Below, piece after piece: positions 4,698-35,894 of a DNA stretch of 64,000 bases. Origin of the DNA: a bacterium (GTDB lineage: Bacteria > Hinthialibacterota > Hinthialibacteria > Hinthialibacterales > Hinthialibacteraceae); contig CAXXSM010000149.1 in NCBI GenBank assembly GCA_963663405.2, positions 96,001 to 160,000 on the forward strand, in the 5' to 3' direction. A model generated the notes under the pieces. That model did not search any database, was not told where the DNA came from, and saw only the letters and a program-made list of their open reading frames with translations. The translations under genes were made by a program, and so were the position numbers. Positions within the stretch are counted from its first letter, which is position 1. The number at the start of each line of letters is the position of its first letter.

Positions 4698-7388
4698 TTA
4701 ATAAAGCGGCCAATTGCCAATGGGAGTATCTAACTGCATCAATTCGATGACAGCCCATCCCGTTTCGTCGTTTTTATAGGCGTCTGTGATCACGCCGTAA
4801 GCGTTCATGTGCCAATAAGCATAAAATCCATCAGAGGGATCGATCATTTTGAAATCAAAACCGATTATATTGCGGTCGGGTGGATCCAGCGCGACTGATT
4901 TATCTACGATGAATTCCACTACATAACCAGACATATCATCTTTGATGCGCGCTCCATAGTTCATATAGACGCCATTTGTCGTGTAATAAAAACCATCTCC
5001 TTCGATCGGAGTCGCTCCGTTGGGAACGGAACCATCGCCATAGTAGCCATGTCCATCAACGATAACTCCAATCCCAAATCCATACTGGTCTGCTTCTTTT
5101 CGGGTTAAACGTGAAAAATTGCCATCTAAATAAAGAACTGCTGAATCATTATTCCATCCTGTGCTTTGGTCGACAATAATATTAGGATCCAATACATCGG
5201 ATGCGATATAAATGAAATCCTGGTCATGAAGTAGATAGAGAACCGTATGCTGTACTTCAGGTGGATTTGTGTTGCCTGTGAGATGAACGCCAGGAGGTTC
5301 GCCGAATGGATTGTTCGCCGGATCTGGCACATAATTATCAAACATCTCTGTGTAAGCTTGGTCATATTCTCCATCACTGATTAAACCATCAAGAGTAATA
5401 TTGGCGTTTTCAACGAATGGCACACTGAAGATTATTGGTTGAATTTCATAATCACCAGCAATAGGGATTTCATCACCTGATGAATCAACGCTTGTTCCAT
5501 CGAACAATAAGCAAACTTTTTCAAAGCCACTAGCAGCCATATATTCAACATCATAGGACATTTGAGCGCTGCCGCTAAGATCGGATAGGGTCCATTCAAT
5601 CAAATCATCGGTTATAGAGAATTCACCATTGGTGACTGAAATATTCGTTGGAGTCACACCATCAGGTATGATTTCTTTAATGACTCCATTTATGGGAGAA
5701 TCTCCTGAAGAAACAGCATTGAGAATAATGTTTTCAATCACGCCATTTTCTGATGAATCATAATATGATACTGGAATTTCACGTGAAACATATAGATCAT
5801 ATTGAATGATTTCTACATCCGTGAAATCAGCAAAGCTGACATAATCCGGACCATTCCATGAAGTGACGCCAAGACCTACATAAACAGGATCTACTAAATT
5901 AAGTATATGGGTTTTAGCCAATTCTGTTTTTTCACCAGTTGAATAGTCCATGTAATAAACAGATACTACATCCCCTACTCGAAGGATTTCGATATCCCCG
6001 CCATGAACATCCACGGAAACATTTCCTACATTGTCCGCTTCTGTATCCGCCACTTTTTTTCTGGATTGCATTCGTAAATTATTGTTAGAAAGAAGTTGAG
6101 CGGAAGTATATACAGCGTCTGGCTCTAAGGAATCCCGGATAAACAATCCGGCGCGGGCATTGGCGCCGTCTCCAGATGCGAAATCTAAAAGTACATTGGC
6201 TTTCAACCGGAAGGGACCATTCATCTCATTAAATAGAAAATACATGTTGTCCGTACTCTCGATGCTTCCCCCTCCTGCGCTTAACTCATATCTACCATTT
6301 TCATATATGGGATCCAATCCTTGCAAGTCGGCGTTCCCAAGGAGTATTTGATGTTCAAAATCTCCCAAACCACCGGGTAACACGGCTTTTGTAAAATCGC
6401 CTAATATGGGAAGTTCACCGATTGTTCCGTATATACTCACCTGTTGATTGGAAATTATATCGACATTTTGAGGAATTAATTCGTAACTGACAGTAGTCAT
6501 TGAATCTGTCAAATTCCAAGTAATGGATGAGTCTGATAGAACACCACCATCACTTATATTCGATGTATCCCACCCATCGGGGATCATTTCTGTCAAAGTA
6601 GAGGAGGCTGGATTCGCAATATCGATGGATATTAGCGAAGGTTTTCCATTTTGGAATACTTCATCTTCGATCGTGCGCCATGCGATTGGAGATTGGAATT
6701 CATCGATAATGACATCCGTAATTTCTCCCACAGCTAAGAAATCGTCTTGTGAGTGACTGGTTATAGCGAATCCATAGGCTAATGTTTCTTCCATAGGCAA
6801 TACCATGGAATGACCTAACATCCAATTTTGACCATCGGTGGAAAATTCTGCAAATAACCAATCTTTTTCCGCCACCCGAGTAAGACGAAGCCACATCGAA
6901 CCACCATCAAGTGGAACAATATTTCCATCCTGATCTTGGAAGCGAGTGCGATCCACGCCAGGTGTTCCATCTAATTCCATACGCCATTGTGCGCTGGAGT
7001 ACTCCCATGTGCCTTTAGCCAAGGCGCCATAATACACTCCACCCGGTTCTTGGGGATGCTGTCGAATGATCGGACCGAATTTTGTCCAAGCTTCCGCTCC
7101 AGGATCGTTCCAAGTTACTTTTCCTGAAATGAAGTAACTCCCACTTCTTTCAGTGTAAGCAAAGAATCCTTCATCCTGGTTGTTCCAAATGTCACGGCCA
7201 TTTCCATAAATTGTGTAAATCGCGTCACGGCCAGAACCTTCAACAGTGATTTCTCCATCCGTTTTGTTTGTGTTTTCTTCCAATGTCCAATCTGCGGATT
7301 GGTCGAATAATCCAACGGCTCCGGAATTTTGGATAAAAATGAATAGTGCCAATAAAACAGTAGTGAAAAACAGTGATAGATATTTCAT
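4698..7388 (-). CDS. Large secreted acidic multidomain protein (two ConA/DUF1349-like modules, Ig-like spacers, C-terminal CBM9/DOMON-like module) ending in W-tail TPIGNWPLY
   Basis: Signal peptide; repeated GLFDQSADW..YTIYGNGRDIW..DEGFFAY / LGDFEHQ..YELSAGG..DNMYFLF modules; ITLDGLISDGEY..YLLHDQDFIYIA..D..LYLDG (CBM9-like). Domain names are by motif recall only. Confidence 0.75.
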   Translation of the reverse strand: MKYLSLFFTTVLLALFIFIQNSGAVGLFDQSADWTLEENTNKTDGEITVEGSGRDAIYTIYGNGRDIWNNQDEGFFAYTERSGSYFISGKVTWNDPGAEAWTKFGPIIRQHPQEPGGVYYGALAKGTWEYSSAQWRMELDGTPGVDRTRFQDQDGNIVPLDGGSMWLRLTRVAEKDWLFAEFSTDGQNWMLGHSMVLPMEETLAYGFAITSHSQDDFLAVGEITDVIIDEFQSPIAWRTIEDEVFQNGKPSLISIDIANPASSTLTEMIPDGWDTSNISDGGVLSDSSITWNLTDSMTTVSYELIPQNVDIISNQQVSIYGTIGELPILGDFTKAVLPGGLGDFEHQILLGNADLQGLDPIYENGRYELSAGGGSIESTDNMYFLFNEMNGPFRLKANVLLDFASGDGANARAGLFIRDSLEPDAVYTSAQLLSNNNLRMQSRKKVADTEADNVGNVSVDVHGGDIEILRVGDVVSVYYMDYSTGEKTELAKTHILNLVDPVYVGLGVTSWNGPDYVSFADFTDVEIIQYDLYVSREIPVSYYDSSENGVIENIILNAVSSGDSPINGVIKEIIPDGVTPTNISVTNGEFSITDDLIEWTLSDLSGSAQMSYDVEYMAASGFEKVCLLFDGTSVDSSGDEIPIAGDYEIQPIIFSVPFVENANITLDGLISDGEYDQAYTEMFDNYVPDPANNPFGEPPGVHLTGNTNPPEVQHTVLYLLHDQDFIYIASDVLDPNIIVDQSTGWNNDSAVLYLDGNFSRLTRKEADQYGFGIGVIVDGHGYYGDGSVPNGATPIEGDGFYYTTNGVYMNYGARIKDDMSGYVVEFIVDKSVALDPPDRNIIGFDFKMIDPSDGFYAYWHMNAYGVITDAYKNDETGWAVIELMQLDTPIGNWPLY

Positions 7389-7440
7389 CAGTAATCATTC
7401 CTCCTTAGTGGTCATGATTATACGAAGAACTGAATATAAG

Positions 7441-7548
7441 ATTATCAGACAAATTAGAGAAAGATTAACCGTTTGTCAATAGGATATTGAAACATTTTTA
7501 GAATTTTTTGATTTTCATCTTGATTTTTATTTTGTCTGATAATATGAT
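7441..7548. promoter_or_regulatory. Divergent sigma70-like promoters overlapped by two copies of a GntR/FadR-type operator
   Basis: TTTGTCTGATAAT at 7531-7543 (+) and 7441-7453 (-). Plus-strand promoter TTGATT(7520-7525)-17 bp-TATGAT(7543-7548); minus-strand promoter TTGACA(7479-7474)-17 bp-TAATTT(7456-7451). Confidence 0.65.
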
Positions 7549-7581
7549 AAATAGAATATCTCATAAAGAGGTGATTTTCAA

Positions 7582-8235
7582 ATGGGGATTATTAAAAATG
7601 GATTCACGTTAATTGAATTGTTAATCGTCGTTGCGATTATAGGTATTTTGGCGGCCATTGCTGTTCCCAATTTTATGAATGCGCAGGTTCGGGCCAAAAT
7701 AGCCAGATCTCAAGCGGATATGCGTTCGATCGGAACGGCGATTGAGTCATTTCGCATTGATAATGGCGCTTTATTGGTGGATTTTTATGATGAACAAGAT
7801 ACTGCGGCAATACAACGTTTACAAAAATGGGGATTATGTTCTGTTAACAATTTTGATGACGCCGTTAGGAATCAACGTTGCATATATGCTAATTTAACTT
7901 CTCCTGTAGCTTTTATTTCTGCAATACCTGATGATCCTTTTTTTGGTAAAATTAGCAACAATGTGACGGATCGTTTAATAGAGGCGTTTGCGGGTACTTA
8001 TATTTATTATGATAATGAAGCAGCCATCCCTGGAGATGACCATTATGTTCCGCTGTTGAGCGGTGATAATGGTAAGCCCTTCAATGTTAATCCTTTAGGA
8101 TTGAATCAATGGGTATTGTTGGGAATTGGTCCTGATTCGAGTATTGGCGACACAGATCTCAACAGAAGGGGAATCCCTTACGATGCGACAAATGGTCTTC
8201 GAAGTGAAGGCGATTTGATGACGAGAAGCGGGTGA
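7582..8235 (+). CDS. Prepilin-type N-terminal cleavage/methylation protein (GspG/pseudopilin-like), paralog 1
   Basis: KNG|FTLIELLIVVAIIGILAAIAVPNF class III signal peptide; LTSPVAFI..IPDDPF; GPD; YDATNGLRSEGDL. Confidence 0.88.
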   Translation: MGIIKNGFTLIELLIVVAIIGILAAIAVPNFMNAQVRAKIARSQADMRSIGTAIESFRIDNGALLVDFYDEQDTAAIQRLQKWGLCSVNNFDDAVRNQRCIYANLTSPVAFISAIPDDPFFGKISNNVTDRLIEAFAGTYIYYDNEAAIPGDDHYVPLLSGDNGKPFNVNPLGLNQWVLLGIGPDSSIGDTDLNRRGIPYDATNGLRSEGDLMTRSG

Positions 8236-8402: not shown

Positions 8403-8417
8403 TTGTCTGATAATATG
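8403..8417 (+). promoter_or_regulatory. Third copy of the putative GntR operator, upstream of the regulator gene (autoregulation)
   Basis: TTGTCTGATAATATG is identical over 15 bp to 7532-7546. Confidence 0.65.
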
Positions 8418-8450: not shown

Positions 8451-9209
8451 ATGTTCCAAGAATTGAAAAGAGAGAATCTGTCTAAGACTCTTGTTCGCGC
8501 ATTAAGCAAGTATATTTTAGAGAAAAATCTAAAACCGGGAGACAGGCTACCTACTGAGAAAGAATTATCCACGAGTTTTCAAGTTGGAAGAAGCGTAGTG
8601 CGTGAAGCATTGAAAGCATTGGAGATTATTGGATTAATCGTGTGCCGACCAGGTGTGGGAGCGGTTCTTTCGTCTGAGGGAGTCGATCCTTTCTTGCTGC
8701 CATTCGTTTTTGGATTTGTTCTTGAAGAATCCAAATTGAAAAGTTTATGCGAATTGCGATTAATCTTTGAACAAGGCGCCGCGCGATTGGCATGTGTTAA
8801 TTGCACTCTGGAAGAACAATCCAAATTAAAGGAAATCGCAGAAAATTTGGATGAAATCAAAGAAGTAACGTATGAAAATCCAACCGACGAAAACCAAAGG
8901 AAACTTTGTGAGTTGGAGATCAGTTTTCACCAGAAATTGGTACTTGCGTCGAAAAATTCTGTTCTAATGAAATTTGGCGCGCTATGGGAGATATTCTTCC
9001 TACATGCGTTGGAAACAGGTGATCTTGTTCGAGCGTCAAAAGCGGGACAGGAAAACCTTGTTACAAAGGTGAAACATACCGAAATCGTTGATGCGATATT
9101 AAAGAAGGAAGAAGATAAAGCCTCGGAACTGATCAAAATCCATCTGGTATACTGGCTGAAAAATTTAGCCTCTGTATCGAAAGAATCTTTGATTAAACTG
9201 ACTGGGTGA
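8451..9209 (+). CDS. GntR family (FadR/FCD) transcriptional regulator
   Basis: LKPGDRLPTEKELSTSFQVGRSVVREALKALE winged HTH; ELRLIFE and FHQKLVLASKN FCD motifs. Confidence 0.93.
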   Translation: MFQELKRENLSKTLVRALSKYILEKNLKPGDRLPTEKELSTSFQVGRSVVREALKALEIIGLIVCRPGVGAVLSSEGVDPFLLPFVFGFVLEESKLKSLCELRLIFEQGAARLACVNCTLEEQSKLKEIAENLDEIKEVTYENPTDENQRKLCELEISFHQKLVLASKNSVLMKFGALWEIFFLHALETGDLVRASKAGQENLVTKVKHTEIVDAILKKEEDKASELIKIHLVYWLKNLASVSKESLIKLTG

Positions 9210-9311
9210 CAATTTGTTATTACTGATGTATTAAACGATTCATTTTTTGATCTTAAACATATCTGGAATAGAGTTGTTTATTAGTAATTGGTAAGCCATC
9301 TGAAGTGATAG

Positions 9312-9425
9312 ATTCCTCTCCCAAGCCTGGGGGAGGTTAGCTGAGGGTTGATTCATCGATGTTCAACCCCCCTCTAACTCCCTCCAATAACAGGCGCTCG
9401 CGCCGGAGCATTAAGGGGGGAGAAT
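9312..9425. repeat. Intergenic imperfect palindromic (REP-like) element
   Basis: Inner arms GGAGGTTAGCTGAGGGTTGA and TCAACCCCCCTCTAACTCC; outer arms ATTCCTCTCCC and GGGGAGAAT. Confidence 0.5.
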
Positions 9426-9521
9426 TAGCTCAGCGACGCCTCGTAAATTGATTGTTGATATCTAATTATTTCATGTGACTGATATGATACAAAGTAACAA
9501 TCCAAATAAAAGAAGGTCATA

Positions 9522-10229
9522 ATGTCGAATACAAACTATAAACACGCTCCTTTAGAACTGGACTATGATGTAGTAAGCATAAATGAGAGATTCAGAAAAT
9601 TATATACGGGTTTGGTTTACGATGCTTGCGAACACTTTGGTTTACCGTGCACGGCAATGGAGAGTGGAATCTATCCTTTGATTCATACAATGAAAGTCGC
9701 AGGACCTGCATTCACGGTTCATTGTATATCCACGCCCAACCGAAATGAGGAGCTTCATGATATACGTCTTGGAATGTTGAAAAGCATGACGCCGGGTTGT
9801 ATCCAAATTCGGGACACACAAAACAACCAGAATTGCGGCCAGTTTGGTGAAATCAGCGCGACTGCCGCCCGTGCCGCTGGATGCGCTGGAGCTGTGATTG
9901 ATGGCAGTACGCGGGATAGCAATCACCTGATTGATATGGATTTTCCCACCTTTTGCCGGTTTCGAAATCCAGTCGAAGCGTTCGGACGGTTTATGGCTGT
10001 TGACTATCAGATTCCTATTTATGTTAAAGGAATTGACGGCCAGTTGATCGTTCACCCAGGAGATTACATCATTGGTGATAACGATGGGGTTGTTATTATT
10101 CCAAAGGATCACACTCTTCAAGTGTTGGAACAGGCCGAAACCTGGAAACAATCTGAATCCCAAAGCCGTGAAGCCATGGGAAATGGGATTGATCCCTTCG
10201 AAGTTTATGCAAAGTACGGGCGTTTTTAA
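9522..10229 (+). CDS. RraA-family / HMG-CHA aldolase-like protein
   Basis: KVAGPAFTV, FGEISATAA..AGCAGAVIDGSTRD, VHPGDYIIGDNDGVVIIP. Confidence 0.88.
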   Translation: MSNTNYKHAPLELDYDVVSINERFRKLYTGLVYDACEHFGLPCTAMESGIYPLIHTMKVAGPAFTVHCISTPNRNEELHDIRLGMLKSMTPGCIQIRDTQNNQNCGQFGEISATAARAAGCAGAVIDGSTRDSNHLIDMDFPTFCRFRNPVEAFGRFMAVDYQIPIYVKGIDGQLIVHPGDYIIGDNDGVVIIPKDHTLQVLEQAETWKQSESQSREAMGNGIDPFEVYAKYGRF

Positions 10230-10297
10230 CACATATACTTGCTCTTTCTTTTTTATCAAAAGAGAAAAGTATCTATCGACTTACAAGTAAGAATTTT

Positions 10298-11566
10298 ATG
10301 GGGGGAACTTACAAAATGACAAAGAAACATTTAATTCCCTATCAATGGGAAATGATAATTCTATTATGGTTTGCCTATTTTTTTAATCAAGGCGATCGTC
10401 AAATTTATAATGTGGTTTTGCCGTTAATCAAAACGGATTTACTATTGAGTGATGTACAATTGGGATTGGTTGTCACGATATTCACTCTCTGTTATGCCGT
10501 CCTGGTTCCTATTGCTGGCTATATTGGTGATGTTTATCGTCGAAAATGGGTTGTTTTTGTAAGTTTGCTCGTTTGGAGCACTGCCACCTTGTTTACTGGA
10601 ATCAGCACTGGAATCGTGCTCTTAATACTTTTCCGCGGTATAGCGACAGGAGGAGGAGAAGCGTTTTATTATCCGGCCGCCAACTCTCTAATCGGACAAT
10701 ATCATCATAAAACCCGGGCTCTCGCGATGTCCATACATCAAACTTCCCTTTATGCGGGAATTGTGGCCAGTGGATTTATCGCAGGATATATCGGAGAACA
10801 TTTTGGCTGGCGCATGGCGTTTTATCTCTTTGGGGTATTGGGAATACTTTTGGCTGGCGTCATTTATTTCAGACTAGAAGACACACCGCAACTCAATCAC
10901 GACCAAACAAACAGCGACTTGGACAACGAGCGGATTCCCATTTCATCGGTTCTAAAAAGCATTGCCTGCAAACCGACCGCGTTTATGCTGTGTATGGCTT
11001 TTGGTGGGATGGTCTTCGTTAACATCGGTTTCATGACCTGGATGCCGACATATCTTCATGAAGATTTTTCCCGTTCTCTAACCATGGCGGGTTTCGATTC
11101 CACTTTCTACCATTATTTATTTGCTTTTTTCGGTGTCTTGTTAGGCGGACAATTCTCCGATTACTTTGCCCAAAAACGACGGACCATCCGCTTGGAAACC
11201 GAATGTTTAGGTTTGTTATTAGGCGCGCCGTTTATCTATCTGATGGGCGCCACAGAAAACATGTTTCTATGTTATTTCGCCATGGCCGCATTCGGATTGT
11301 TTCGTGGAATCTATGATTCCAATCTTTTTGCCGCGTTGTTCGATGTGATAGAACCGAGAGTAAGGGCGTCTGCGGTTGGGATTATGATTGCTTTTGCCTT
11401 TATTGTAGGAGCGTTCGCTCCATTGATCCTTGGGTGGGTCAAAGAGAACTGGGGCTTGGCGATTGGAATATCCTCTTTGGGATATGTGTATTTCATCTCA
11501 GCATTAGTAATTTTATTCGCTCAGTTTTTCTTCTTCAAAAAAGATTATTACGAAGAGAAGGATTAA
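10298..11566 (+). CDS. MFS transporter (ACS/sugar-acid-like), paralog A; start may be ATG 10316
   Basis: NQGDRQ, AGYIGDVYRRK motif A, about 12 hydrophobic segments. Confidence 0.92.
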   Translation: MGGTYKMTKKHLIPYQWEMIILLWFAYFFNQGDRQIYNVVLPLIKTDLLLSDVQLGLVVTIFTLCYAVLVPIAGYIGDVYRRKWVVFVSLLVWSTATLFTGISTGIVLLILFRGIATGGGEAFYYPAANSLIGQYHHKTRALAMSIHQTSLYAGIVASGFIAGYIGEHFGWRMAFYLFGVLGILLAGVIYFRLEDTPQLNHDQTNSDLDNERIPISSVLKSIACKPTAFMLCMAFGGMVFVNIGFMTWMPTYLHEDFSRSLTMAGFDSTFYHYLFAFFGVLLGGQFSDYFAQKRRTIRLETECLGLLLGAPFIYLMGATENMFLCYFAMAAFGLFRGIYDSNLFAALFDVIEPRVRASAVGIMIAFAFIVGAFAPLILGWVKENWGLAIGISSLGYVYFISALVILFAQFFFFKKDYYEEKD

Positions 11567-11596
11567 TCTAAAAAAACAAGAATAGGAGATAGAAAA

Positions 11597-12964
11597 ATGA
11601 AATTGCTTTTTGTATTCAGGCCAATTTGGATTTTCGTTTTTGTATCAATCGTCATGTCTTCGTTTTCACTTCCTTGCTCCGCTGAATTATCCGAGCAATA
11701 TAAGGCTCTCTGGAACGATCTAGAGTTAAATCAAACAATAGAAAATAATATCGACGCCTATAGGAAGGGGCATCTTGCCTTGAAATTTGTTACGGAGGAT
11801 GGGCGCCCCGTTACAGACGCTAAGATAAAGGCTATACAGACAGGTCACGAATTCCTGTTCGGTTGTAATCTTTTCTTTTTAAAGGGATTCGATTCAGATG
11901 AGATGAATAAGAAATATGAAGAGGCATTCGTCAATTTATTCAACTTTGCCACAATGCCTTTTTACTGGTCAGATTTGGAGCCTGAACCAGGCAAAATTCG
12001 TTTCCAGAAAAATTCTCCTCCCATTTTTCGCCGTCCACCTCCCGATCTGCTGCTTGAGTTCGGATTCAAGCATAATTTAACATTAAAAGGCCATCCGTTG
12101 ATTTGGCACGCCTGGTATCCCGATTGGCTTCCTAACGATCAGGCCCAAGTAGAACGATATGCTCAAAAACGCTTTTCAGAAATCGCGGCGCGTTATAGCC
12201 AACATATTAAAATTTGGGATGTGGTGAATGAATCATTAGTTCGGCCGATGAATGTAACGTTACCTCGGGATTATGTTCCTTGGTCATTTAAGCAAGCCGA
12301 AAAAGTATTTCCGGATGACAACGTTTTAATGATCAACGAAGTAACATCTGTAAGCCATCAGTACAATAAATCGGAAACCAAGTATTATCTTCAAATTAAA
12401 AACCTGATCGCGCAAAACATACGGCTCAATGGGATTGGCTTTCAATTTCATATTTTCTCCGAAAATGGTATGAAAAATGTCGCCGCTGGGAAAGATTTCA
12501 CTCCGAAAAACATGATGCAAGTGTATGACCTCTATCGTGAATTCGATTTACCTCTCTACATAACCGAAATCACGATACCCAGTTTAGGAGAAACGGGCGA
12601 TGAAGAGCAGGCGGAAGTCGTAAAGAACTTCTATCGTTTATGGTTTAGCACGCCCAATATGGCGGGTATAACGTGGTGGAATCTTGGCGATGGAACGGCG
12701 GTTCCAAACGAAAATAAATGGTTGGGCGGTCTGATGGACAAAGATCTGAATCCTAAAAATTCCTATCAAGTCTTGGATCAATTAATCAATCATGAATGGA
12801 AAACCGAATATGAAGGACAAACCAACGATAAAGGGCGTGCGATTTTCTGTGGTTTTTATGGATCCTACTCCATCACCGTGGAAACCAGCGAAGGCGCACA
12901 AGAATTTATAATCAACCACTCCAAAGGAAAAAGCGGACATCATACAATTATCATTGAGGATTGA
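11597..12964 (+). CDS. Secreted GH10 family glycoside hydrolase (endo-xylanase-like)
   Basis: Signal peptide; KGHPLIWH, WDVVNE (acid/base), GIGFQFH, YITEI (nucleophile), GITWW. Confidence 0.88.
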   Translation: MKLLFVFRPIWIFVFVSIVMSSFSLPCSAELSEQYKALWNDLELNQTIENNIDAYRKGHLALKFVTEDGRPVTDAKIKAIQTGHEFLFGCNLFFLKGFDSDEMNKKYEEAFVNLFNFATMPFYWSDLEPEPGKIRFQKNSPPIFRRPPPDLLLEFGFKHNLTLKGHPLIWHAWYPDWLPNDQAQVERYAQKRFSEIAARYSQHIKIWDVVNESLVRPMNVTLPRDYVPWSFKQAEKVFPDDNVLMINEVTSVSHQYNKSETKYYLQIKNLIAQNIRLNGIGFQFHIFSENGMKNVAAGKDFTPKNMMQVYDLYREFDLPLYITEITIPSLGETGDEEQAEVVKNFYRLWFSTPNMAGITWWNLGDGTAVPNENKWLGGLMDKDLNPKNSYQVLDQLINHEWKTEYEGQTNDKGRAIFCGFYGSYSITVETSEGAQEFIINHSKGKSGHHTIIIED

Positions 12965-14157: not shown

Positions 14158-14160
14158 TAA

Positions 14161-14916
14161 ATGAGTTCTCTCTCAAACAAAATCGCGTTAGTGACCGGAG
14201 GGAGCCGGGGCATTGGAGCCGCGATTGCTTTGGAACTGGCTGAAGCCGGGGCGGATGTGGTTGTCAATTACAATCACTCCGAAGACAAAGCGCTTACGGT
14301 AGCGCGTCAGATAGAAGATAAGGGCAAAAAGGCTCTTGCCTTGCAAGCCGATATCAGCCAAGTCTCCTGTATACACGATCTATTTGATCAAATTGAAAAC
14401 CAATTGGGAACTGTGGATATTCTTGTCAACAACGCTGGATTGGAGATTCGGCGTTCCTTTCAGGAATTCGACGAGTCAACGTATGAGAAGATCATGAACA
14501 CGAATCTCAAAGGAGCGTTTTTCTGCGCCCAACGCGCGATCGGTGGCATGAAAACAAAACAATGGGGACGTGTCATTAATATTTCATCCGTTCACGAATT
14601 AACGCCGACACGTTTTTGCAGTGTATACAGTATGACAAAATCGGGAATGATCCTGATGATGCGGGAAATGGCTGTCGAGTTCAGCCAATATGGAATTACA
14701 ATCAATAATATCGCGCCGGGCGCGATACGAACGGATATCAACCGTGAAGTTCTTTCCGATCCTGCTTATGAACTCAAAGTGATTAACAAAATCCCGTCAC
14801 GTTTCATTGGCGAGCCGGAAGATGTGGCTAAAACAGCCGTATTCTTAGCTTCGGACAACGCGCGATATATCACAGGCGCATCTATTTTTATCGATGGGGG
14901 AATGCAATTGTTATAG
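14161..14916 (+). CDS. SDR family oxidoreductase (glucose 1-dehydrogenase-like)
   Basis: TGGSRGIG, NNAG, NISSVHE, YSMTK, IAPGAI. Confidence 0.92.
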   Translation: MSSLSNKIALVTGGSRGIGAAIALELAEAGADVVVNYNHSEDKALTVARQIEDKGKKALALQADISQVSCIHDLFDQIENQLGTVDILVNNAGLEIRRSFQEFDESTYEKIMNTNLKGAFFCAQRAIGGMKTKQWGRVINISSVHELTPTRFCSVYSMTKSGMILMMREMAVEFSQYGITINNIAPGAIRTDINREVLSDPAYELKVINKIPSRFIGEPEDVAKTAVFLASDNARYITGASIFIDGGMQLL

Positions 14917-24371: not shown

Positions 24372-24415
24372 TGTAAATACAATTATGACTGAATGTATAA
24401 ATTACCATTCATTGA

Positions 24416-27671: not shown

Positions 27672-29069
27672 ATGAAAAACAGAACCAAAGTTATTACGCT
27701 TTTATCCATTTTGTCTTTCAGCGTCACCTCTGTGTCACTCACGCAGGAGTCAAATAGTACAAATACCATCGGCATTTTTGAGGATCATCATGATTGGGTG
27801 GCTGGCATGGCTCCCGGTGAGGCCGCATACGATCCAAATACGGGCGAGTATATGATACAAGGATCGAGCGCTCTCTATATTGATGAAGAAAATCGTGAAA
27901 TTGGTATGGGTGGACACGTCGCCTGTTCATGGATTTGTAATGATAGCAATTTTGAGTTAGAAGCCCATGTCACAGCGGAATTTGTGTCCAGTGGGAGTAT
28001 TTTTTCCAGCGCGGTTCTTTTTGTCAGTGAATATGATCCACCGGAAACGATTGATTTATACAACTGTGGCGCGGCGTTTGGAATTGGAGTTACTTCCAAA
28101 TTCAACAGTCTTATCTGTTATTACCAGGAAAAGAGAGGCCCCTATGATATGTCGGTTATTGATGATGAAGTGTATCACGAGGGGCGTCTCAAGTTAGTTA
28201 AAGATGGAAACACTATACAAGCCTTCTTCTTTGATCCATTTTTGGAAGAATGGGTGTTATACGGCGAACACGAAATGGAATTTAATACTCCTGAATTGAC
28301 TGTTGGTTTAGTCGCTAGTTCAGGGAATTCTGTCAATTTATACACTATTGGACGTTTTACTGAGGTAAAGTTGACGATCGATGACACCCCCGGTGGATCG
28401 GATATTCCATCATCGGTTTCAGAACCAGTCGGTATGTTCGAAAACCATCGGGATGTGTTTCCCGGCCTCATGGCCGCCGGTGAAACCAGTTATGATCCAG
28501 ACACTGACGAATATGTAATTATTGGATCATCTTACAATAATAATTATGGGCATATCGCCTATTCAACATTCAATAGTCAGGATGATTTCATATTCGAAGG
28601 TGAAATCCTTTCAGAGCATATCGACAGTGACGATGAATGGGGTGGAGCCAGCTTATACATTCAAGAAGGGGATCCTGCCAGCACGCTCGATGACATCGAG
28701 AATTACAGCGCTTTTTATTGTGTCGGCATAGCTGCCAAAACTCAACTCATTTCAGTGTGGTATCAAGAGATTCAAGGGCCTTACGCTGTTTCGTATCCGG
28801 CGAATATCGGCTTGGAATGCAATCACGATGGACGTATAAAAATTGTAAAAGAGGGTGAGATTTTCAGTTCCTATTTTTTTGATCCGGATTTGGATGATTG
28901 GATTTTGCGAGATGAACGGATTCTTCTATTTTCGGAACCCACGATGGTGATTGGTATTTTTGTAGGTTCTAGTATCGACAATAAATACTCAAAGGGAACA
29001 TTTAGAAATTTAAAACTCACTGTTAATGGTATACAAAGCGGTGTTGAAGATTGGACAATGTATAGATAA
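27672..29069 (+). CDS. Secreted acidic protein with two tandem ConA/DUF1349-like repeats, ending in W-tail SGVEDWTMYR
   Basis: Signal peptide; repeats IGIFEDHHD..GEAAYDPNTGEY.IQGS and VGMFENHRD..GETSYDPDTDEY.IIGS; HEGRLKLVKDG / HDGRIKIVKEG; FFDP. Confidence 0.78.
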   Translation: MKNRTKVITLLSILSFSVTSVSLTQESNSTNTIGIFEDHHDWVAGMAPGEAAYDPNTGEYMIQGSSALYIDEENREIGMGGHVACSWICNDSNFELEAHVTAEFVSSGSIFSSAVLFVSEYDPPETIDLYNCGAAFGIGVTSKFNSLICYYQEKRGPYDMSVIDDEVYHEGRLKLVKDGNTIQAFFFDPFLEEWVLYGEHEMEFNTPELTVGLVASSGNSVNLYTIGRFTEVKLTIDDTPGGSDIPSSVSEPVGMFENHRDVFPGLMAAGETSYDPDTDEYVIIGSSYNNNYGHIAYSTFNSQDDFIFEGEILSEHIDSDDEWGGASLYIQEGDPASTLDDIENYSAFYCVGIAAKTQLISVWYQEIQGPYAVSYPANIGLECNHDGRIKIVKEGEIFSSYFFDPDLDDWILRDERILLFSEPTMVIGIFVGSSIDNKYSKGTFRNLKLTVNGIQSGVEDWTMYR

Positions 29070-29158: not shown

Positions 29159-32100
29159 ATGATGAAACCAGTATTCCGAATCATTGTAATGTTGTTGACC
29201 TATCTGATATCTTCCCCATATGCAATCTTTTCACAAGATACAGGTAACTGGAATGTATGGACAACGGCGGATGGATTGACGCATACCGCAGTACGAGTTA
29301 TCCGTGTGGGTGATTCGGGCCGTGTGTATATCTCTCCACTCACAGATATTGGAATTAATGTCTATGATGGATATTCCATGATTCAACTTCCAGATCTTCC
29401 AAATGAACTTGCCGTTCTCGAAGGCGCTGAAGGAGAACTCTGGGCTCCTTATCTAATGAATCAGAAAATAGCCGGTGTTCAACAATACAAATATCCATCA
29501 GAAAATATCGCTGGGGGAGAATGGATTGCGCATGAAATTCGGGAAGCTTCTGAAGCCGATTTTTACGATCACCAGTGTAACCGGAATTGGAGCGATTTTC
29601 GTTATCATAAATATGGGAAACTGCTGCCGCTCAAACAAAACCGGATCCTTCTTCTTCTCCCAGACAAATTAATTGAATTTAATTCAGAAACCAAAACGAC
29701 GAAAACCGTATTGCGGGTTGAAGATACGGTTTTAGATCGATTCAACGAGATGGCTCCATCAATGAATGGCAATATTTGGATTGTCGGCCATTACAATATA
29801 ATAAAAGTCGACCGTCTGGCCATTGAAGAATCGACACAACCAACATGCGCGCCATATCTCAATACGCCATTAGATGAAAACTATTTTTTCTTTCGATACG
29901 CCGGTCAATTTTGCCAGTTACCGTTCGAGAATGTCGCTAACGAACTTTTCATGCCCACCACATCTAAAAAAGACCAAGCGTTGTTTGTGGCTCATTTAAA
30001 AAATCATTCTGTCCAGTGGATTAAACCTCAATTTGCCAAGCATGTGCTCGATGGTGTAAGTGGGAACAATGGCAGTTATTGGGTAACCGAATGGGGGCAA
30101 ACCGGCGAGGGCTATCATTTGTTGCAATACAACCATTTCAATGAAGTGATCCAACATCGAGAAGATAAAGGTTGGATTAATGCGGTAGAGCCGAATGAAA
30201 TTTTTTGGGTATGTAATAACGCGGGAATGGAACGTCATGCCCCTTCGCTTTGGCAACCCCTTCCGGCAATGAACAACCACGCGTTAGCTCATACGATCGA
30301 TAAGCAAGGACGGCTGTGGATCGCTTCATTATTAAAACTTTACTGCTATGAAAATGGCATATGGAAAGAGCCGTTTGAATTTCCGAACGATTTCTTTGAT
30401 CCCAAATTGTTTCGTGGAACCTCTTTTCATATACACGATATCGCCTGTTTGCAGGATGGCCGTTTACTCATTCCGACATTTTGTAATATTTTCCTGCTCT
30501 TCGATCCTTCCACTGAGCAGTTTGAAATCATACCTCATCCCGATAAAACACGAAAAATCGGTGAATTTGTTCATCCACGTATGGATGGAACCGCATGGAT
30601 TATCTCTCATGCGTCAGAACAAACCACGATTTTTTCCTTTCAATTAGAAATCTTTGATGGGAAAGAAGCCCGTCCCTTTCTACAAGGCAAAGAAGATTGG
30701 AACATCGGCAGATTATTCGTAATACTCGAATCCAAAAACGGAGATATTTGGTTAGGTGGTAGTCGAGGCGCCGGACTGTATAAATCCGGAGAATACCGGC
30801 TGTTGGATCAAACTTCCGGTTTCCCCGGCAGTGGTGGTCTCGCGATCGCCGAATTACAAAATGGCAATATCTGGATCGCGGACGATACCAGCGTTTATGA
30901 ATTTGATGGTGAGCAATGGACTATAGTCCTCGATGGATTGCAATACGTCGAAAATATATTTCAAAGCAGCGACGGTAGTATTTGGGTAACGACAACAACG
31001 GGTGTTTATCGTTTTTACAACAATTGCTGGATTAAATATACAGAAGAAAATGGTCTTCGCAATTCCATCACCCATTTTACGTTTGAATATCCGCAAGGTC
31101 AAATTTGGATTTCTCAACGATCTGATGGTTTGTGCCAGTTTCATCCTGAAAACGATCCTGATCCACCGGTCGGACTCATTTTGGACAAAAAAAACTTGCG
31201 TCAAATCGCTCCCGGTGGTGACACATTGATTGTCTATTCAGGTATGGATAAATGGAAATACACAAAAACTGAAGAATTGTTGTATCGCTATCGTATCGAC
31301 GCAAGCGACTGGTGTGATTATACGCATGACACTCTCGCCTTTTTCCGTTCGCTCCATTCAGGCAGGCATCGCTTTGAATTGCAAGTCATGGATCAAAATT
31401 TTAACCTCTCAAAATCGATTTTTTGGGATTTCGAAGTCTTATGGCCGTGGTACAAACAATCCATATTTTGGATTTTGTTCTCATTTACTGGAACGATTAT
31501 ACTCCTCCTCCTTGGTTTTCATCTCTTCCATCATTTCAACCTTGAACGCCTTGTCGCTCAACGCACAGAACACCTTTCAAAAGCGAATGAACAACTCCAT
31601 GACAACCAAACTAAACTCCGCACGCTCTCGCAGGAACTCTCGATTGCAGAAGAACGTGAGCGGCGGCAGATTGCAACTGACTTACATGATCAAATCGGTC
31701 AATCGCTGGCGTTGTGTAAAATCCAAACTCAATCCATCCACGCTTTATCCACCGGAACCGGTCTGGAAGACAACTTAATCCAGCTGCGCGATTCCATTCA
31801 TCAAACCATTCAAGACACTCGCTCTCTGACGTTCGAAATCAGCCCTCCTGTTCTGTACGAAATTGGCCTGTCAGCCGCAGTTACGTGGCTTGCACGAAAT
31901 TTGCAGGAAAAATTCGGCTTGGAAATTGTTGTGCAAGAAGACGATCCCTTCGATCAGCTCAACGAAGATCTTCGTTCATTCCTGTTTCGAGCCATTCGCG
32001 AATGCGTTATTAATGCAATCAAACATGCGCAAGCTAAAAAAGTCATCGTGCTTTTAAACCAGGATAAAAACGTTATTAAATTCCGCATTGAGGATGACGG

Positions 32101-32266
32101 CGCCGGTATGAAAGCGGAAAGTGAACGGTCCAGAAAGGGATTTGGGCTTTACGCTATTCAGGAACGCCTTCGCTTGTTGGGCGGAACGTTTACTATTGAT
32201 TCGGTTTTGGGGGAAGGGACAAAAATCTGTATATCAATTCCAGGAAATATTACTATGGAGGAATGA
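29159..32266 (+). CDS. Sensor histidine kinase: periplasmic beta-propellers + Y_Y_Y-like domain + TM + HisKA_3/HATPase
   Basis: WTTADGL, repeated G.IW blades, LYRYRID..W..Y..L.SGRHRFELQVMD, PWYKQ-TM, EERERRQIATDLHDQIGQ, E..NAIKHA, DDGAG, GFGL. Confidence 0.9.
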   Translation: MMKPVFRIIVMLLTYLISSPYAIFSQDTGNWNVWTTADGLTHTAVRVIRVGDSGRVYISPLTDIGINVYDGYSMIQLPDLPNELAVLEGAEGELWAPYLMNQKIAGVQQYKYPSENIAGGEWIAHEIREASEADFYDHQCNRNWSDFRYHKYGKLLPLKQNRILLLLPDKLIEFNSETKTTKTVLRVEDTVLDRFNEMAPSMNGNIWIVGHYNIIKVDRLAIEESTQPTCAPYLNTPLDENYFFFRYAGQFCQLPFENVANELFMPTTSKKDQALFVAHLKNHSVQWIKPQFAKHVLDGVSGNNGSYWVTEWGQTGEGYHLLQYNHFNEVIQHREDKGWINAVEPNEIFWVCNNAGMERHAPSLWQPLPAMNNHALAHTIDKQGRLWIASLLKLYCYENGIWKEPFEFPNDFFDPKLFRGTSFHIHDIACLQDGRLLIPTFCNIFLLFDPSTEQFEIIPHPDKTRKIGEFVHPRMDGTAWIISHASEQTTIFSFQLEIFDGKEARPFLQGKEDWNIGRLFVILESKNGDIWLGGSRGAGLYKSGEYRLLDQTSGFPGSGGLAIAELQNGNIWIADDTSVYEFDGEQWTIVLDGLQYVENIFQSSDGSIWVTTTTGVYRFYNNCWIKYTEENGLRNSITHFTFEYPQGQIWISQRSDGLCQFHPENDPDPPVGLILDKKNLRQIAPGGDTLIVYSGMDKWKYTKTEELLYRYRIDASDWCDYTHDTLAFFRSLHSGRHRFELQVMDQNFNLSKSIFWDFEVLWPWYKQSIFWILFSFTGTIILLLLGFHLFHHFNLERLVAQRTEHLSKANEQLHDNQTKLRTLSQELSIAEERERRQIATDLHDQIGQSLALCKIQTQSIHALSTGTGLEDNLIQLRDSIHQTIQDTRSLTFEISPPVLYEIGLSAAVTWLARNLQEKFGLEIVVQEDDPFDQLNEDLRSFLFRAIRECVINAIKHAQAKKVIVLLNQDKNVIKFRIEDDGAGMKAESERSRKGFGLYAIQERLRLLGGTFTIDSVLGEGTKICISIPGNITMEE

Positions 32267-32925
32267 TGTCGATACGTGTTTTAGTTGTTGATGATCATCA
32301 AGTCGTTCGTGAAGGATTCTGTGCGCTACTGGAAAACCAAGAGGATATGCAAGTCGTGGGTCAGGCCGGCGAAGGCCGCACGGCCATCCAACTCAACCGC
32401 GATCTGCTCCCGCATGTCGTTTTATTGGACATCTCCATGCCTGACATGAACGGTATCGAGGCAGCCCGGCAGATTCACTTGGAATTTCCCGACACAAAAA
32501 TCATCATCCTTTCCATTCATTCCACCAAAGAGTATGTGGAAAAGGCCCTGAAATCTGGTGTGCGGGGATATTTACAAAAAGATTGCGCCTTCGATGAATT
32601 GGTCAATGCCATCCGAACCGTCATGTCGAATCGTATCTATCTCAGTTCCGTTATCACTGACGTGGTTATCGATGATTACCTTAATCCACGAAATTCAGCG
32701 GACAGTACGGATGTTTCTGCTGATGCGCTCACTCCTCGAGAACGCGAAGTTCTCCAACTGATATCCGAAGGGCATTCCTCCAAAGATATCGCGGATAAAC
32801 TCAGTGTCAGCGTAACCACAATCGATAGCCATCGAAAAAAGATCATGGACAAACTCAACATCCACAACCTTGCCCTATTAGTCAAATACGCCATCCGTCA
32901 AGGACTCACTGATCTTGAGCATTAA
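32263..32925 (+). CDS. NarL/LuxR-family response regulator
   Basis: VVDDH, LLDISMPDMNG, LTPREREVLQLISEG..SKDIA.KL.VS..TIDSHR. Confidence 0.95.
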   Translation: MMSIRVLVVDDHQVVREGFCALLENQEDMQVVGQAGEGRTAIQLNRDLLPHVVLLDISMPDMNGIEAARQIHLEFPDTKIIILSIHSTKEYVEKALKSGVRGYLQKDCAFDELVNAIRTVMSNRIYLSSVITDVVIDDYLNPRNSADSTDVSADALTPREREVLQLISEGHSSKDIADKLSVSVTTIDSHRKKIMDKLNIHNLALLVKYAIRQGLTDLEH

Positions 32926-33159: not shown

Positions 33160-35043
33160 ATGATGAAAAGAGTATTGAAGTATTGTCCAATTGCGCTCCT
33201 GTTATTATGCCCGTTGATTTCCATGGGACAGACTGAAATGTTCTACGATGATTTCAGTGGCGACCTTGCAAAGTGGCAAGAACTGGGAAACGTGGGAACC
33301 CCCCAAGTGGCGGATGGTGAACTACGCCTCGAATGGGGTTACGCGCCGAACTGGTTTGTCACTAATGATACATTTAATTTTGGTTCGGAAGCGTTGCAAT
33401 TCGATTTCACCTTTGTGGAAGGTGGATACCAGGCAACAGCCAACTACAAACAAAACTATATCCAACCACTGTTGGGCGCCAATGATTTAGAGTCGGATAA
33501 CGGAGCCGTGCGCGCCCGCTTTAGCGCCGACTTCTTCGAATTGGAACGCTACAACGCCGATGGTACTTGGAGCGATATTCCATTTACAAGCGATGAGGAA
33601 AACCTCACTGTCGATCCTGGTGACCGGGTACGCTTTGAAATTGACTCAACCGGTCAAAAAGGTGTGATGTATGTTAATGGAGAATCCGCAATCGCGTTTG
33701 AAACCAACGAAATCCTATCCGGTAGTATCGGATTCCGGGTTGTGACAGATTCTCGAAACGTGATCGTAGACGATGTGTATTTTGCGCAAATTGACGGCGG
33801 CGGCGCTGAAACCGTCATTTTAGACGATTCATTTGAACGCGCTGATGTGGGAGCCGATTGGGTAAATGAAACCCTCGCCGATGACAGCAGCCCCGGTCCC
33901 TTGCTCGCGTTTATTGAAAACGGGCAGTTGCATCTCACCAGTGACGGTTCCGGTGACGCGTGGTTACGCATTGACGCCGACGTGACCTTCGAAGGCGGCA
34001 CAACCGTATTTGAATACACATTTGTTGACTATATCGGAGACAACACCTACAGACCTTCTCCGGTGTTAGGTGTAAAAGCCTATGAATCCGGTATAACCAG
34101 TGGAGTGATCTTGATCGATAACGGTTCCGGCGTTAATTATGGTTTAGTTGATGGAGGATGGGCTCAGGGACAAGCCTCCGAAATCGGCGGGAACCGCAAC
34201 GGTATGAGAGTCCAAATCGTCGTCAATCCCGGCGGCCAATCCGGCCACATAGTCCGCGACGGCATAGAAGGCATCAACTTCTTCAACATCGGACCAACCT
34301 TTTCCGGCGGATTTGCGTTCCGTCTCATTGCCGGCCGGGATATTACTCTCGATGATTTATTTATCTATGCCCTTGAACCGGATGGCGGTAAAACCACATT
34401 GTATGAGGACAACTATAACCGTGATGAGTTAGGGGATGATTGGATTTTGGAAGCGCTCACCCCAGACGCCCCTCCAGGCGCCGTCTTCATTGAAATGGGA
34501 GACTTTGATGGAGACGGTGATAATGAAGTATTATTCGATCATGATGGATCGCTGGATGATGAGTGGATTCGCCTGCAATCCGACCTTCCATTTGGTGGAG
34601 ATAAACCGGTCGTGATTGAAATGACGGTTGTGGAATTCATCGACTATGCGTCGGTCGTTATCGGCACAAACGAATTCAATTCAGAATTGTATGGCCCCAT
34701 TTTGTTGGATAATATGGAATCACCATGGGTAATGGATACACGCGGTGGAAATGTATGGGTTCGTCCCGGCCCGGTCGGAGGATCAAACATTTCCTTAAAA
34801 GTAAATGCTGATGGCCGCAGCGGTTCGTTTCTAGTAAATGATGTTATCATCCGAGATTGGGAATTCGCCGAAGGCGAAGCGCCCATCCCGGTTGGCGCGG
34901 TTGGATTTGAAGATCCATTCGATTCTCCTCACACAAATACTGTCCCGCCGGCTGAACCGGATACGGTCGCCACAGCGGTTTATGATGATGTCCGCGTGAC
35001 GGCGGTTGAAGATACATCGGTCAACAATTGGATGATTCATTAA
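33160..35043 (+). CDS. Secreted acidic protein with three ConA/DUF1080-like repeats, ending in W-tail TSVNNWMIH
   Basis: RBS GGAGG; signal peptide; repeat starts FYDDFS / LDDSFE / YEDNYN and repeat ends GSIGFR..VDDV / GGFAFR..LDDL / GAVGFE..YDDV. Confidence 0.8.
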   Translation: MMKRVLKYCPIALLLLCPLISMGQTEMFYDDFSGDLAKWQELGNVGTPQVADGELRLEWGYAPNWFVTNDTFNFGSEALQFDFTFVEGGYQATANYKQNYIQPLLGANDLESDNGAVRARFSADFFELERYNADGTWSDIPFTSDEENLTVDPGDRVRFEIDSTGQKGVMYVNGESAIAFETNEILSGSIGFRVVTDSRNVIVDDVYFAQIDGGGAETVILDDSFERADVGADWVNETLADDSSPGPLLAFIENGQLHLTSDGSGDAWLRIDADVTFEGGTTVFEYTFVDYIGDNTYRPSPVLGVKAYESGITSGVILIDNGSGVNYGLVDGGWAQGQASEIGGNRNGMRVQIVVNPGGQSGHIVRDGIEGINFFNIGPTFSGGFAFRLIAGRDITLDDLFIYALEPDGGKTTLYEDNYNRDELGDDWILEALTPDAPPGAVFIEMGDFDGDGDNEVLFDHDGSLDDEWIRLQSDLPFGGDKPVVIEMTVVEFIDYASVVIGTNEFNSELYGPILLDNMESPWVMDTRGGNVWVRPGPVGGSNISLKVNADGRSGSFLVNDVIIRDWEFAEGEAPIPVGAVGFEDPFDSPHTNTVPPAEPDTVATAVYDDVRVTAVEDTSVNNWMIH

Positions 35044-35056
35044 AATGGTTTCAAAT

Positions 35057-35097
35057 GGGGGAGGAAACTGATTATGGTTTTCTCCTCTTTTTTTTTT
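35057..35097 (+). terminator. Rho-independent terminator
   Basis: Stem GGGGAGGAAAC / GTTTTCTCCTC followed by T10. Confidence 0.8.
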
Positions 35098-35306
35098 GGA
35101 AAAAATGGTGTGCTATGCAGGATTGCTGGATATATCAAGCGAGGCGGGATTAATCGGTCCATTTTCGTTTTTGTACATAATGCATTTGAGCGCTTTATGC
35201 CTATCCTCGTGAGGTCAAAAAAGTCGACCGAACTGCAATCATCTTTTATTATAAGACTTAGAAAAATGACTTTAACATAGTTTCTTTCCCTATCGTCTAA
35301 AGGAAT

Positions 35307-35894
35307 TTATTGATTCATAATACCCATGCCGGTTATGATTAGATCGCCTAGGCTATTGAGTCCGTTTGATGAATCGTATAAGTAATTTCGGCCTGCTTGA
35401 TTGCGCTCTTTTAAATTCAAGCAAGCGCTCTCTCCCCATGGATATTGCAAAGACCGGTCCGGCGCGAAACTGATAATGACATATCCAACATTATAAATAT
35501 GATAGAAACTGCTTTGTTTATCGGCAAAACGCGCGCTGCCTCCACCATAATCATAAAAATTCCGTATAAAACCACCCTCATCGGAACGTCCGGCTTTACT
35601 GGTGAAATAATCGCGGAAAATCTCAAGGTTATTCACATACGCTATTGGGCTAGTCAAAACGCGATAAGAAAGAGTTTCGTCATTCGGGCCGGTAACATCT
35701 GGGGGATAATCATTGTTATCCAAGTAATATAATTCCATTGCAGTGGAGATTGCCTTAAAATCAGCTTTGACTCTTGATACACCCGCTCGAACTTGAGCGT
35801 TTAAAAAGTTGGGAACAGCAATTGCCGCTAAGATACCAATGATGGCGACCACAATCAATAATTCGATCAGAGTAAACGCACCCGGTTTTTTCAT
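35307..35894 (-). CDS. Prepilin-type N-terminal cleavage/methylation protein, paralog 3
   Basis: PGA|FTLIELLIVVAIIGILAAIAVPNF; YYLDNNDYPP; LTSPIAYV; APD; YDSSNGLNSLGDL. Confidence 0.88.
   Translation of the reverse strand: MKKPGAFTLIELLIVVAIIGILAAIAVPNFLNAQVRAGVSRVKADFKAISTAMELYYLDNNDYPPDVTGPNDETLSYRVLTSPIAYVNNLEIFRDYFTSKAGRSDEGGFIRNFYDYGGGSARFADKQSSFYHIYNVGYVIISFAPDRSLQYPWGESACLNLKERNQAGRNYLYDSSNGLNSLGDLIITGMGIMNQ

Follow-up and report, generated by a model that had tools for sequence, protein, structure and literature searches.

How a diderm bacterium without the SusC/SusD pair gathers glycans is the question raised by a stretch of 64,000 nucleotides (the window; G000:C149:96001-160000) from a member of the Hinthialibacterota. 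Three genes for pilin-like proteins (pilins A, B and C, beginning at 7582, 19417 and 35307) directly adjoin genes for exported proteins (W-A, W-B and W-C) that end in the same short tail built around a tryptophan, the W-tail; a fourth such protein (W-D, at 27672) has no pilin neighbour. The original prediction, whose open reading frames (ORFs) are all present where it placed them, read this arrangement as a system analogous to a polysaccharide utilization locus (PUL) and devoid of SusC/D. The system is real and phylum-wide, is of the T2SS (type II secretion system)/type IV filament kind, and has a PUL-like use in a subset of loci. What stands of the analogy is a non-random pairing of pilins with W-tail proteins, a putative operator in locus A, a lectin-type fold in W-B, loci of relatives in which the pair takes the SusC/D slot and a scarcity of TonB receptors; what does not stand is the equivalence of the pairs and strict specificity for glycans. 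Three phylum-wide features are thereby linked: a T2SS operon without gspG, a family of more than 100 GspG-like pilins and a short tag at the C terminus of about 150 exported proteins.

The source genome, G000 (8.44 Mb, 170 contigs, 82% complete), was gene-called with a custom script (7055 genes; the window ORFs were recovered, some with shifted starts) and set within a comparison of 35 genomes of the phylum, itself included, in which relatives are labelled G002, G003, G015 and so forth and loci L018, L051 and so forth. Prepilin genes called by their leader pattern number 148, of which 130 share one N-terminal signature, and a hidden Markov model of the family gives 154 hits of at least 45 bits, among them two ordinary GspG and some fusions. 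The family is present in 31 of 31 genomes with 29 to at least 109 matches each, and its profile matched 3087 cluster representatives at E<=1e-30. All three window pilins carry a class III leader (PF07963 and TIGR02532); across 125 sequences F1, E5 and P22 are invariant, and the processing site and the greater part of the helix vary little or not at all. Family pilins are about 190 residues long and share the C-terminal motif Y-x-x-S-N-G-x-x-S-x-G-D-I. The AlphaFold model of pilin B, built from the 125 sequences with a predicted local distance difference test score (pLDDT) of 83.8, superposes on EpsG with Z 8.6 (root mean square deviation, rmsd, 2.3 over 95 aligned residues) and on PulG with Z 7.7, the best Foldseek match having E 7.5e-3. 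The three nevertheless stay below the GspG cut-off of TIGR01710 (52.7, 63.6 and 56 bits vs 88.85), and they lie among catabolic genes, not within a gsp operon. A link to the DUF1559 expansion, which the original prediction had drawn, falls away: the window pilins show no PF07596 hit (E<=0.01) and no hit to the H-X9-DG model (NCBIfam, E<=0.1; presumably TIGR04294), their C-terminal motif is different and their head is of the GspG type.

At L332, L092, L333 and L334 (G000 C132, C22 and C92) the family's head lacks a prepilin leader and is joined to a BlaR1/M56 peptidase and to AhpC/TSA or redoxin domains. Contigs C4, C110, C164 and C86 of G000 hold four divergent, near-identical pilin-like genes, which stand beside repeated ORFs and possibly ride on a mobile element.

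The W-tail has a consensus of approximately [TV]-[SPA]-V-x-D-W-x-L-[YFH] and is found by profile in 156 proteins of G000, with about 0.5 false hits expected. It is some 11 residues long, terminates two to four residues after the tryptophan and contains neither a hydrophobic helix nor a basic cluster; lacking a transmembrane helix and a basic tail, it was rejected as a tripartite signal of the LPXTG, PEP-CTERM, GlyGly-CTERM or MYXO-CTERM kind. NCBIfam gave zero hits on the four W-tail proteins of the window. All 156 carriers are acidic, compared with 514 among 1543 further proteins that have a hydrophobic stretch at the N terminus, and only three bear a lipobox pattern, unlike the surface lipoproteins of PULs. 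Searched for as a DNA pattern, the tail is positive in 34 of 35 genomes (52 in G000 vs 3 for the reversed control, 2 in G025, 0 in G027). Further acidic exported proteins of G000 have Y or F in place of the tryptophan, and other recurrent C-termini also occur; because of these variants, 156 is a lower bound. As for what precedes the tail, the model of W-B (4 sequences, pLDDT 68.5) matches the BT_1020 sialidase domain with Z 15.8 and galectins with Z 12.5 (rmsd 2.4-2.9). W-B is thus modelled with a lectin-type fold, one also common to LamG, lyases and hydrolases, and in this model the W-tail forms a free terminal strand outside the last jelly-roll. The CBM9-like region of W-A, whose family counts about 20 matches per genome, matches a xylanase CBM9 at E 0.005, and the ESM Atlas returned unnamed clusters and weak leads resembling 3-keto-disaccharide hydrolases for W-B and W-C.

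Pilin and W-tail genes lie side by side far more often than by chance, which bears out the original prediction: 25 of the 148 prepilin genes touch a W-tail gene, as against 5.7±2.3 (maximum 14) in 1000 shuffles of the G000 gene order and 6.5±2.4 when genes are shuffled within contigs. A family pilin is touched by 27 of 156 W-tail proteins and by 53 of 1119 other secreted proteins predicted by a crude signal-peptide rule (p=1.5e-7); for acidic secreted controls the count is 11 of 207. Likewise, in 79 loci from relatives, which include kin so that counts are not independent, the tail is present on 24 of 190 direct pilin neighbours vs 3 of 395 genes at least three away; the adjacency enrichment drops to background at three genes' distance. 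The 25 pairs are co-directional in 19 cases, divergent in 4 and convergent in 2, and the window contains one of each (A divergent, B co-directional with the pilin first, C convergent). Apart from small clusters, the clustering of neighbour families reached uncorrected p<0.01 only for an ECF-sigma-like group, a name given by eye, and for GFO oxidoreductases. GntR was discarded as a general partner, with five cases in G000, two of them in the window. A complex prediction of pilin B (residues 24-178) with the third domain and tail of W-B returned no answer (score 0.01).

Genes for a machine that could assemble the dispersed pilins are present. Since G000 has seven T2SSE, eight above-cut-off secretin and two prepilin-peptidase matches, with GspF/PilC also present, the objection that PilB/PilC/PilD/secretin homologues might be missing fails. 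Three T2SS operons are found: those of contigs C29 and C118 each include GspG, and that of C133 (G000:C133:23456-36810, L081) runs E-F-H-I-J-K-L-M-C-D without any T2SSG hit, the H, I, J, L and C genes being named from the prepilin motif and position. In every genome of the order but G009 and G022 (23 of 25) a C133-type gspF orthologue is found, and in 23 of 23 the next gene is an H-type pilin. In 14 long C133-type stretches, four of them from another order, the only in-operon prepilins are H, I and J, and GspG is lacking from all 14; G002 has a family pilin some 2.4 kb upstream of gspE. Above-cut-off GspG number exactly two in five of five genomes (in two of these, among the best 150 candidates), each beside one of the other two gspF. 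The C133-type secretin is long in relatives (935-1003 residues; 963 with five N-domain hits in G015; a 1774-residue N-domain ORF in G026), and a conserved protein of 630-660 residues without a Pfam hit, intact in relatives, follows the operon. Because the C133 operon lacks gspG while the C29 and C118 operons keep theirs, the orphan family pilins are likely, judging from gene content, to fill the empty slot and form the filament of the gspG-less operon. Both G025 (90% complete) and G027 (84% complete) keep pilins, have no detected C133-type operon and lack the tail or nearly so, a hint from two genomes that tail and gspG-less operon go together.

Putative regulatory sequences accompany some of these genes. 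Three copies of TT[AG]TC[AT]GA[CT]AA stand in locus A, before W-A, in the spacer of the predicted pilin A promoter and before gntR, with copies at matching places in G015, one of them with a mismatch; as intergenic copies number only 9 genome-wide vs 5.6 shuffled, the operator case rests on clustering and conservation. In locus B a 15-mer occurs at 20190 and 20352 and nowhere else in G000, and it was not found in G015, where pilin B stands in a different context. As originally proposed, repeats in both loci (7532 and 20190) overlap predicted pilin promoters (sigma-70-like, 7520-7548 on the plus strand and 20224-20196 on the minus strand), such promoter matches being near chance level. From position and shape, the repeats are putative GntR operators, and an operator common to W protein, pilin and regulator is supported in locus A.

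The genes around the pairs agree in part with a PUL-like use. The expected flanks were recovered (GntR, GH10 and MFS in locus A; GntR, DUF6259, GH39-like and MFS in locus B; propeller kinase and NarL in locus C), the GH39 call being marginal at 27.2 bits vs a cut-off of 26; co-location of carbohydrate-active enzymes (CAZymes), regulator and permease is thus found in loci A and B and not in locus C, which offers only the two-component pair. As predicted, the 41 window proteins scanned with Pfam gave zero hits to TonB receptor, SusD or ABC families. TonB receptors are scarce beyond the window too, with two in G000 and 1, 7, 1, 1 and 1 in five relatives. Sugar-type genes, called here and below by reading domain scans by eye, lie within three genes of 14 of 21 W-pilin pair loci (no matched control). 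In G004 and G015 the W-C orthologue heads an L-rhamnose locus (L143, L144) of AraC, W-C, a pilin other than pilin C, in places a GH106-like gene, and RhaT. L051 (1773-11040), where AraC and a sialidase-like BNR protein stand ahead of a W protein, a pilin, an SSF symporter and a DHDPS-family lyase, is a probable sialic-acid locus, its pair being kept in G000 (C18). L046 has a W protein, a pilin and an ABC permease; L018 and L056 combine W protein and pilin with CbiX, and L018 holds two cobalamin riboswitches (9437-9648, 7543-7675), one directly before a pilin, with three pilins, four W-tail ORFs and CbiX. By gene order, relatives have W protein and pilin at the place expected for SusC/D in their rhamnose, sialic-acid and chelatase loci.

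The computed results above, which cover the size of the families, their adjacency, the fold, the operator-like repeats, the unfilled gspG slot and the scarcity of TonB receptors, can be joined into a modular system of type IV filaments that captures nutrients, in which a T2SS-type machine without gspG polymerises whichever family pilin is expressed, a reading about evenly poised between right and wrong. The pilins would be major subunits that derive from GspG and undergo processing, their assembly helix fixed and their heads particular to each lineage; a common machine, most likely that of the C133 operon, would receive them in trans. A minority of their genes would belong to regulons that answer to a substrate (GntR, AraC, kinase/NarL, cobalamin riboswitch), as would the genes of acidic proteins, often of lectin fold, whose W-tail may act in sorting or docking. 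Once induced, the matching pilin would polymerise and the W-tail protein be exported or displayed, holding a glycan or another nutrient at the surface, where hydrolases would cut it and MFS, SSF, RhaT or ABC permeases import the products. A bolder form of the scheme is doubtful: TonB-independent import throughout the phylum, with one secretin machine reprogrammed by the choice among 30-150 substrate-specific major pilins, and W-tail proteins, docked through their terminal strand, handing glycans, sialic acid, cobamides or metals to a filament that would move them through the secretin.

Several results weigh against this filament scheme, and they are best taken with the rival explanations. The first of these, unlikely though the likeliest of the rivals, holds that a retractile type IVa-like pilus, serving particle attachment or the pulling of bound substrate to the cell, uses the pilins as its alternative major subunits, and that the W-tail proteins are adhesins or cargo of another export route. 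It can point to the N-terminal helix, which taken alone scores best against type IVa PilA, and to the best PDB sequence hits of the A1 profile, the PilA helices of Geobacter and Myxococcus. G000 also has a dispersed type IVa-like set without a local major pilin, comprising PilT-like genes, PilC, PilM with a secretin (C23) and giant minor pilins (C143); the C23 secretin-coaE-rho neighbourhood is similar to that of Akkermansia MUL2. PilB-PilT-PilB occurs in G009 (91% complete) and G027 without a prepilin in those stretches, and G027 retains 29 family matches, yet neither tail nor gspG-less operon was found there. The C133-type operon was not found in G009, where the tail is present, nor in G022, G025 or G032, and in G000 its secretin is in pieces, probably through assembly errors, and the 630-660-residue protein is likewise broken. 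However, the fold and motifs of the head are GspG-like and not PilA-like, a retractile pilus leaves the empty gspG slot of C133 unexplained, and no PilB of a retractile system was found in G000, which is 82% complete. Several relatives (L337, L338, L339, L343) have an MSHA-like operon with its own 120-residue major pilin; it was not found in G000.

Other assembly-type genes were seen beside these. At G000:C23:59895-75319 (L085) a cohesin-domain protein is followed by a PilM-like gene, a large secretin and then polA, coaE and rho, and the cohesin protein gave no PDB sequence hit below E 0.1 and none to Amuc_1102. At G000:C132:67942-72975 (L080), downstream of two family pilins, a T2SSE-type ATPase has a predicted signal peptide, TPR repeats and membrane helices fused ahead of it; ATPase ORFs comparable in length (885-911 residues) occur in G009 and G022.

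A second, improbable explanation takes the pairing as mere co-regulation or a shared insertion habit of two expanded families, independent of each other and both clustered in accessory regions, the window loci being ordinary hexuronate/aldonate clusters with MFS uptake. The mixed orientations and the lability of partners fit it; that 123 of the 148 pilins have no adjacent W gene weighs against the filament scheme. The W-B of G003 comes after another pilin and beside GH97; of six full W-C orthologues, two precede a pilin other than C, three have no adjacent pilin and one lies on too short a contig; among loci fetched with 1.5-kb flanks, pilin relatives stand by the corresponding W protein in 0 of 13 cases for C, 1 of 13 for A and 1 of 11 for B; and of 14 loci of distant W-A paralogues, one has an adjacent pilin and two have a pilin two genes off. 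Since orthologue loci show swapped or absent partners, pair C is probably incidental and the partnerships would be younger than the pilin lineages. Three equivalent cognate pairs are not supported. Nor are sugar genes enriched near pilins overall: at least one gene for a CAZyme, a sulfatase, sugar catabolism or a sugar permease lies within two genes on either side at 9 of 30 pilin loci (sampled from 114 eligible) and at 7 of 30 control loci (p=0.77; gene-level count 12/97 vs 9/89, p ~0.7), many pilins sitting among housekeeping genes, so that the predicted genome-wide excess of CAZymes near pilins did not appear. Among 25 W-tail proteins that do not adjoin pilins, only four match CBM9 (three) or LamG (one); two are LRR proteins, one a cohesin, one each SnoaL, CotH, PPC/PKD, PPDK_N and PQQ_2, and 13 give no hit. 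A strictly glycan-specific system is not supported, in view of this tail on the non-lectins LRR, CotH and SnoaL, the missing sugar enrichment, and the CbiX pairs and cobalamin riboswitch. Against mere co-regulation, the enrichment is specific to W-tail proteins, as opposed to secreted or acidic secreted ones, and is back to background at three genes; of 31 W-pilin pairs from relatives, 8 have their two best hits at most three genes apart in G000; and the putative locus A operators are common to the pair. Part of the pairing is kept in G015, which retains W-A and pilin A (76% and 79%) with their catabolic run; its W-B, too, is paired with the pilin B orthologue, and gntR and GH2 come after this pair.

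Distinctly improbable is a third explanation, that the pilins form no long filaments and are inner-membrane-anchored periplasmic binding or sensing proteins (SusD-like or resembling solute-binding proteins) that reuse the GspG head and are co-regulated with the loci they serve: the leaderless head fusions, a pilin directly after a sugar-type ABC ATPase and permease, and the small number of SBP_bac_1 proteins (2, 3, 3, 2 and 10 in five genomes) speak for it, and the near-invariant processing site, Glu5, Pro22 and helix in 125 sequences, as for filament assembly, together with heads no richer in Trp/Tyr than canonical GspG, speak against it. The ABC genes in question lie at G000:C123:37114-40205 (L211), with no binding-protein gene seen adjoining. 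Antigenic variation is rejected because orthologous heads remain 61-87% identical across genera, often more so than their W partners; set against paralogues that are 27% identical beyond the helix, this fits fixed functions for the separate pilin lineages.

Table 1. Features of the window, with positions counted from its first nucleotide.
Feature	Position	Strand	Description
W-A	4698..7388	-	896-aa acidic exported protein, W-tail; DUF1349-like and CBM9-like domains (weak Pfam hits)
Operator-like repeat 1	7442..7452		W-A side; kept in G015 with one mismatch
Operator-like repeat 2	7532..7542		In spacer of predicted pilin A promoter 7520-7548; kept, inverted, in G015
Pilin A	7582..8235	+	Orphan GspG-like family; divergent from W-A
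Operator-like repeat 3	8403..8413		5' of gntR; kept in G015
Locus A catabolic run	8451..14916	+	FadR-type GntR, RraA/HMG-aldolase-like, MFS, GH10, enolase-superfamily dehydratase, SDR
DUF6259 protein	14911..17184	-	Downstream of W-B; Pfam scan
W-B	17264..19294	-	676 aa, three tandem ConA/galectin-type jelly-rolls, then free W-tail
Pilin B	19417..20001	-	AlphaFold model pLDDT 83.8, nearest EpsG/PulG
Operator-like 15-mer	20190..20204, second copy 20352-20366		Over predicted pilin B promoter; second copy before MFS gene
Locus B catabolic run	20392..26056	+	MFS, GntR, SDR, galactonate dehydratase (NF010624, above cut-off), GH39-like
W-D	27672..29069	+	W-tail protein, no neighbouring pilin, upstream of sensor kinase
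Locus C two-component pair	29159..32925	+	Propeller/Y_Y_Y HisKA_3 sensor kinase and NarL-type regulator; Pfam scan
W-C	33160..35043	+	627-aa W-tail protein
Pilin C	35307..35894	-	Convergent with W-C; pairing not seen in 13/13 related loci

The arrangement at pilin A is repeated in G015 with a head 79% identical, and the locus A run is syntenic there as far as the contig stretch examined; W-B is immediately 3' of a pilin in both relatives with context. Upstream of pilin C and on its strand (36015-40177) lie a transglutaminase-like ORF, apparently split (36015-37911), and two BNR/sialidase-like genes, with which pilin C may belong rather than with W-C. Between W-A and a GH13 gene, a 578-residue ORF without a Pfam hit (2722-4458), DDE-transposase-like by eye and which we take to resemble IS1634, is missing from the matching G015 locus, where the GH13 gene is followed by pilin B and W-B.

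The scheme addresses two open problems, namely how glycans pass the outer membrane in diderms without SusC/D, and why several uncultured or little-studied phyla have dozens to hundreds of pilin-like genes. L-rhamnose, sialic acid, aldonates/uronates and cobamide are candidate substrates. If true, the import reading would put a type IV filament in the place of SusC/SusD and offer a model of the pseudopilin/DUF1559 expansions of the Planctomycetota-Verrucomicrobiota-Chlamydiota (PVC) and related phyla. A literature search by title and the start of abstracts, in a collection with most subscription papers outside its coverage, returned nothing on the pilin family, the tail or the gspG-less operon for this phylum; new here are the operon without gspG, the negative outcome of the sugar test across the genome and the finding that the pairs are labile.

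Among known systems, the T2SS itself is the nearest in build. The Pul system of Klebsiella belongs to the maltose regulon, and the present system shares with GspG/PulG/EpsG (TIGR01710, PF08334; PDB 4lw9, 5wda) the class III leader, the GspG fold, a full E-F-H-I-J-K-L-M-C-D operon and a link to surface proteins induced by carbohydrate. Whereas a T2SS has one gspG per operon, here one operon has none and more than 100 larger paralogues below the GspG cut-off are dispersed; the secretin is long, and the candidate cargo has a common linear tail. The PULs of Bacteroidota are built on SusC/SusD plus surface glycan-binding proteins. Like them, the loci described here combine regulator, binding-type protein, hydrolases and inner-membrane permease, one locus per substrate; unlike them, they have no TonB receptor or SusD and few lipoboxes, a pilin takes the slot, and the pairing is partial and labile. 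Planctomycetota show a large expansion of DUF1559/H-X9-DG prepilin-type genes of unknown role, alike in the size of a prepilin-type expansion and different in matching models, C-terminal motif and the GspG-type head found here.

For the tail, one comparison is with strand donors of the PilC/PilY1 type, in which some 10 terminal residues of a large exported protein dock on a type IV filament and complete the sheet of a strandless PilK homologue. The W-tail resembles these in being a terminal strand that is free, and it has V/I at -3, W and L/V at +2, as in the last strand of the C133 GspK. It differs in that about 150 unrelated proteins carry it and that the C133 GspK has its own strand in cis; the tail was rejected as a copy of that strand, similar by eye and negative on the W-tail profile. 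W-B has three jelly-rolls where PilC has a beta-propeller, and W-A, W-C and W-D gave no PilC Pfam hit. Terminal beta-strand addition is treated in the accessible part of PMC13533445.

Type IV filaments have been tied to sugar capture elsewhere. According to the accessible text of PMC3047682, the Sulfolobus bindosome uses type IV pilin-like machinery for this purpose; there the sugar-binding proteins themselves bear the class III leader and cooperate with ABC transporters, and the cell lacks an outer membrane. Akkermansia MUL2 ties a type IV-like pilus to glycan attachment and uptake, in a neighbourhood of secretin, coaE and rho; it differs in being a single four-gene locus, with no paralogue expansion described in the portion of PMC13174399 available. 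For Hinthialibacter, many GHs, 39 sulfatases, Tad pili and flagella are described, 'TonB' and 'type II secretion' being absent from the main text (PMC9324843), and upregulation of a T2SS on fucoidan is noted in the accessible part of PMC11685898. A case alike by description is Verruconatronum alginivorum, of another phylum, with a pulG-like pseudopilin that has 67 homologues, one inside an alginate-upregulated cluster, and another pseudopilin over-expressed on alginate; its authors read this as T2SS export of lyases, and the accessible part of their text mentions no tail or gspG-less operon (PMC13274419). The gspG-less operon and the need for an induced pilin can also be checked in such cultured expansions, Verruconatronum among them.

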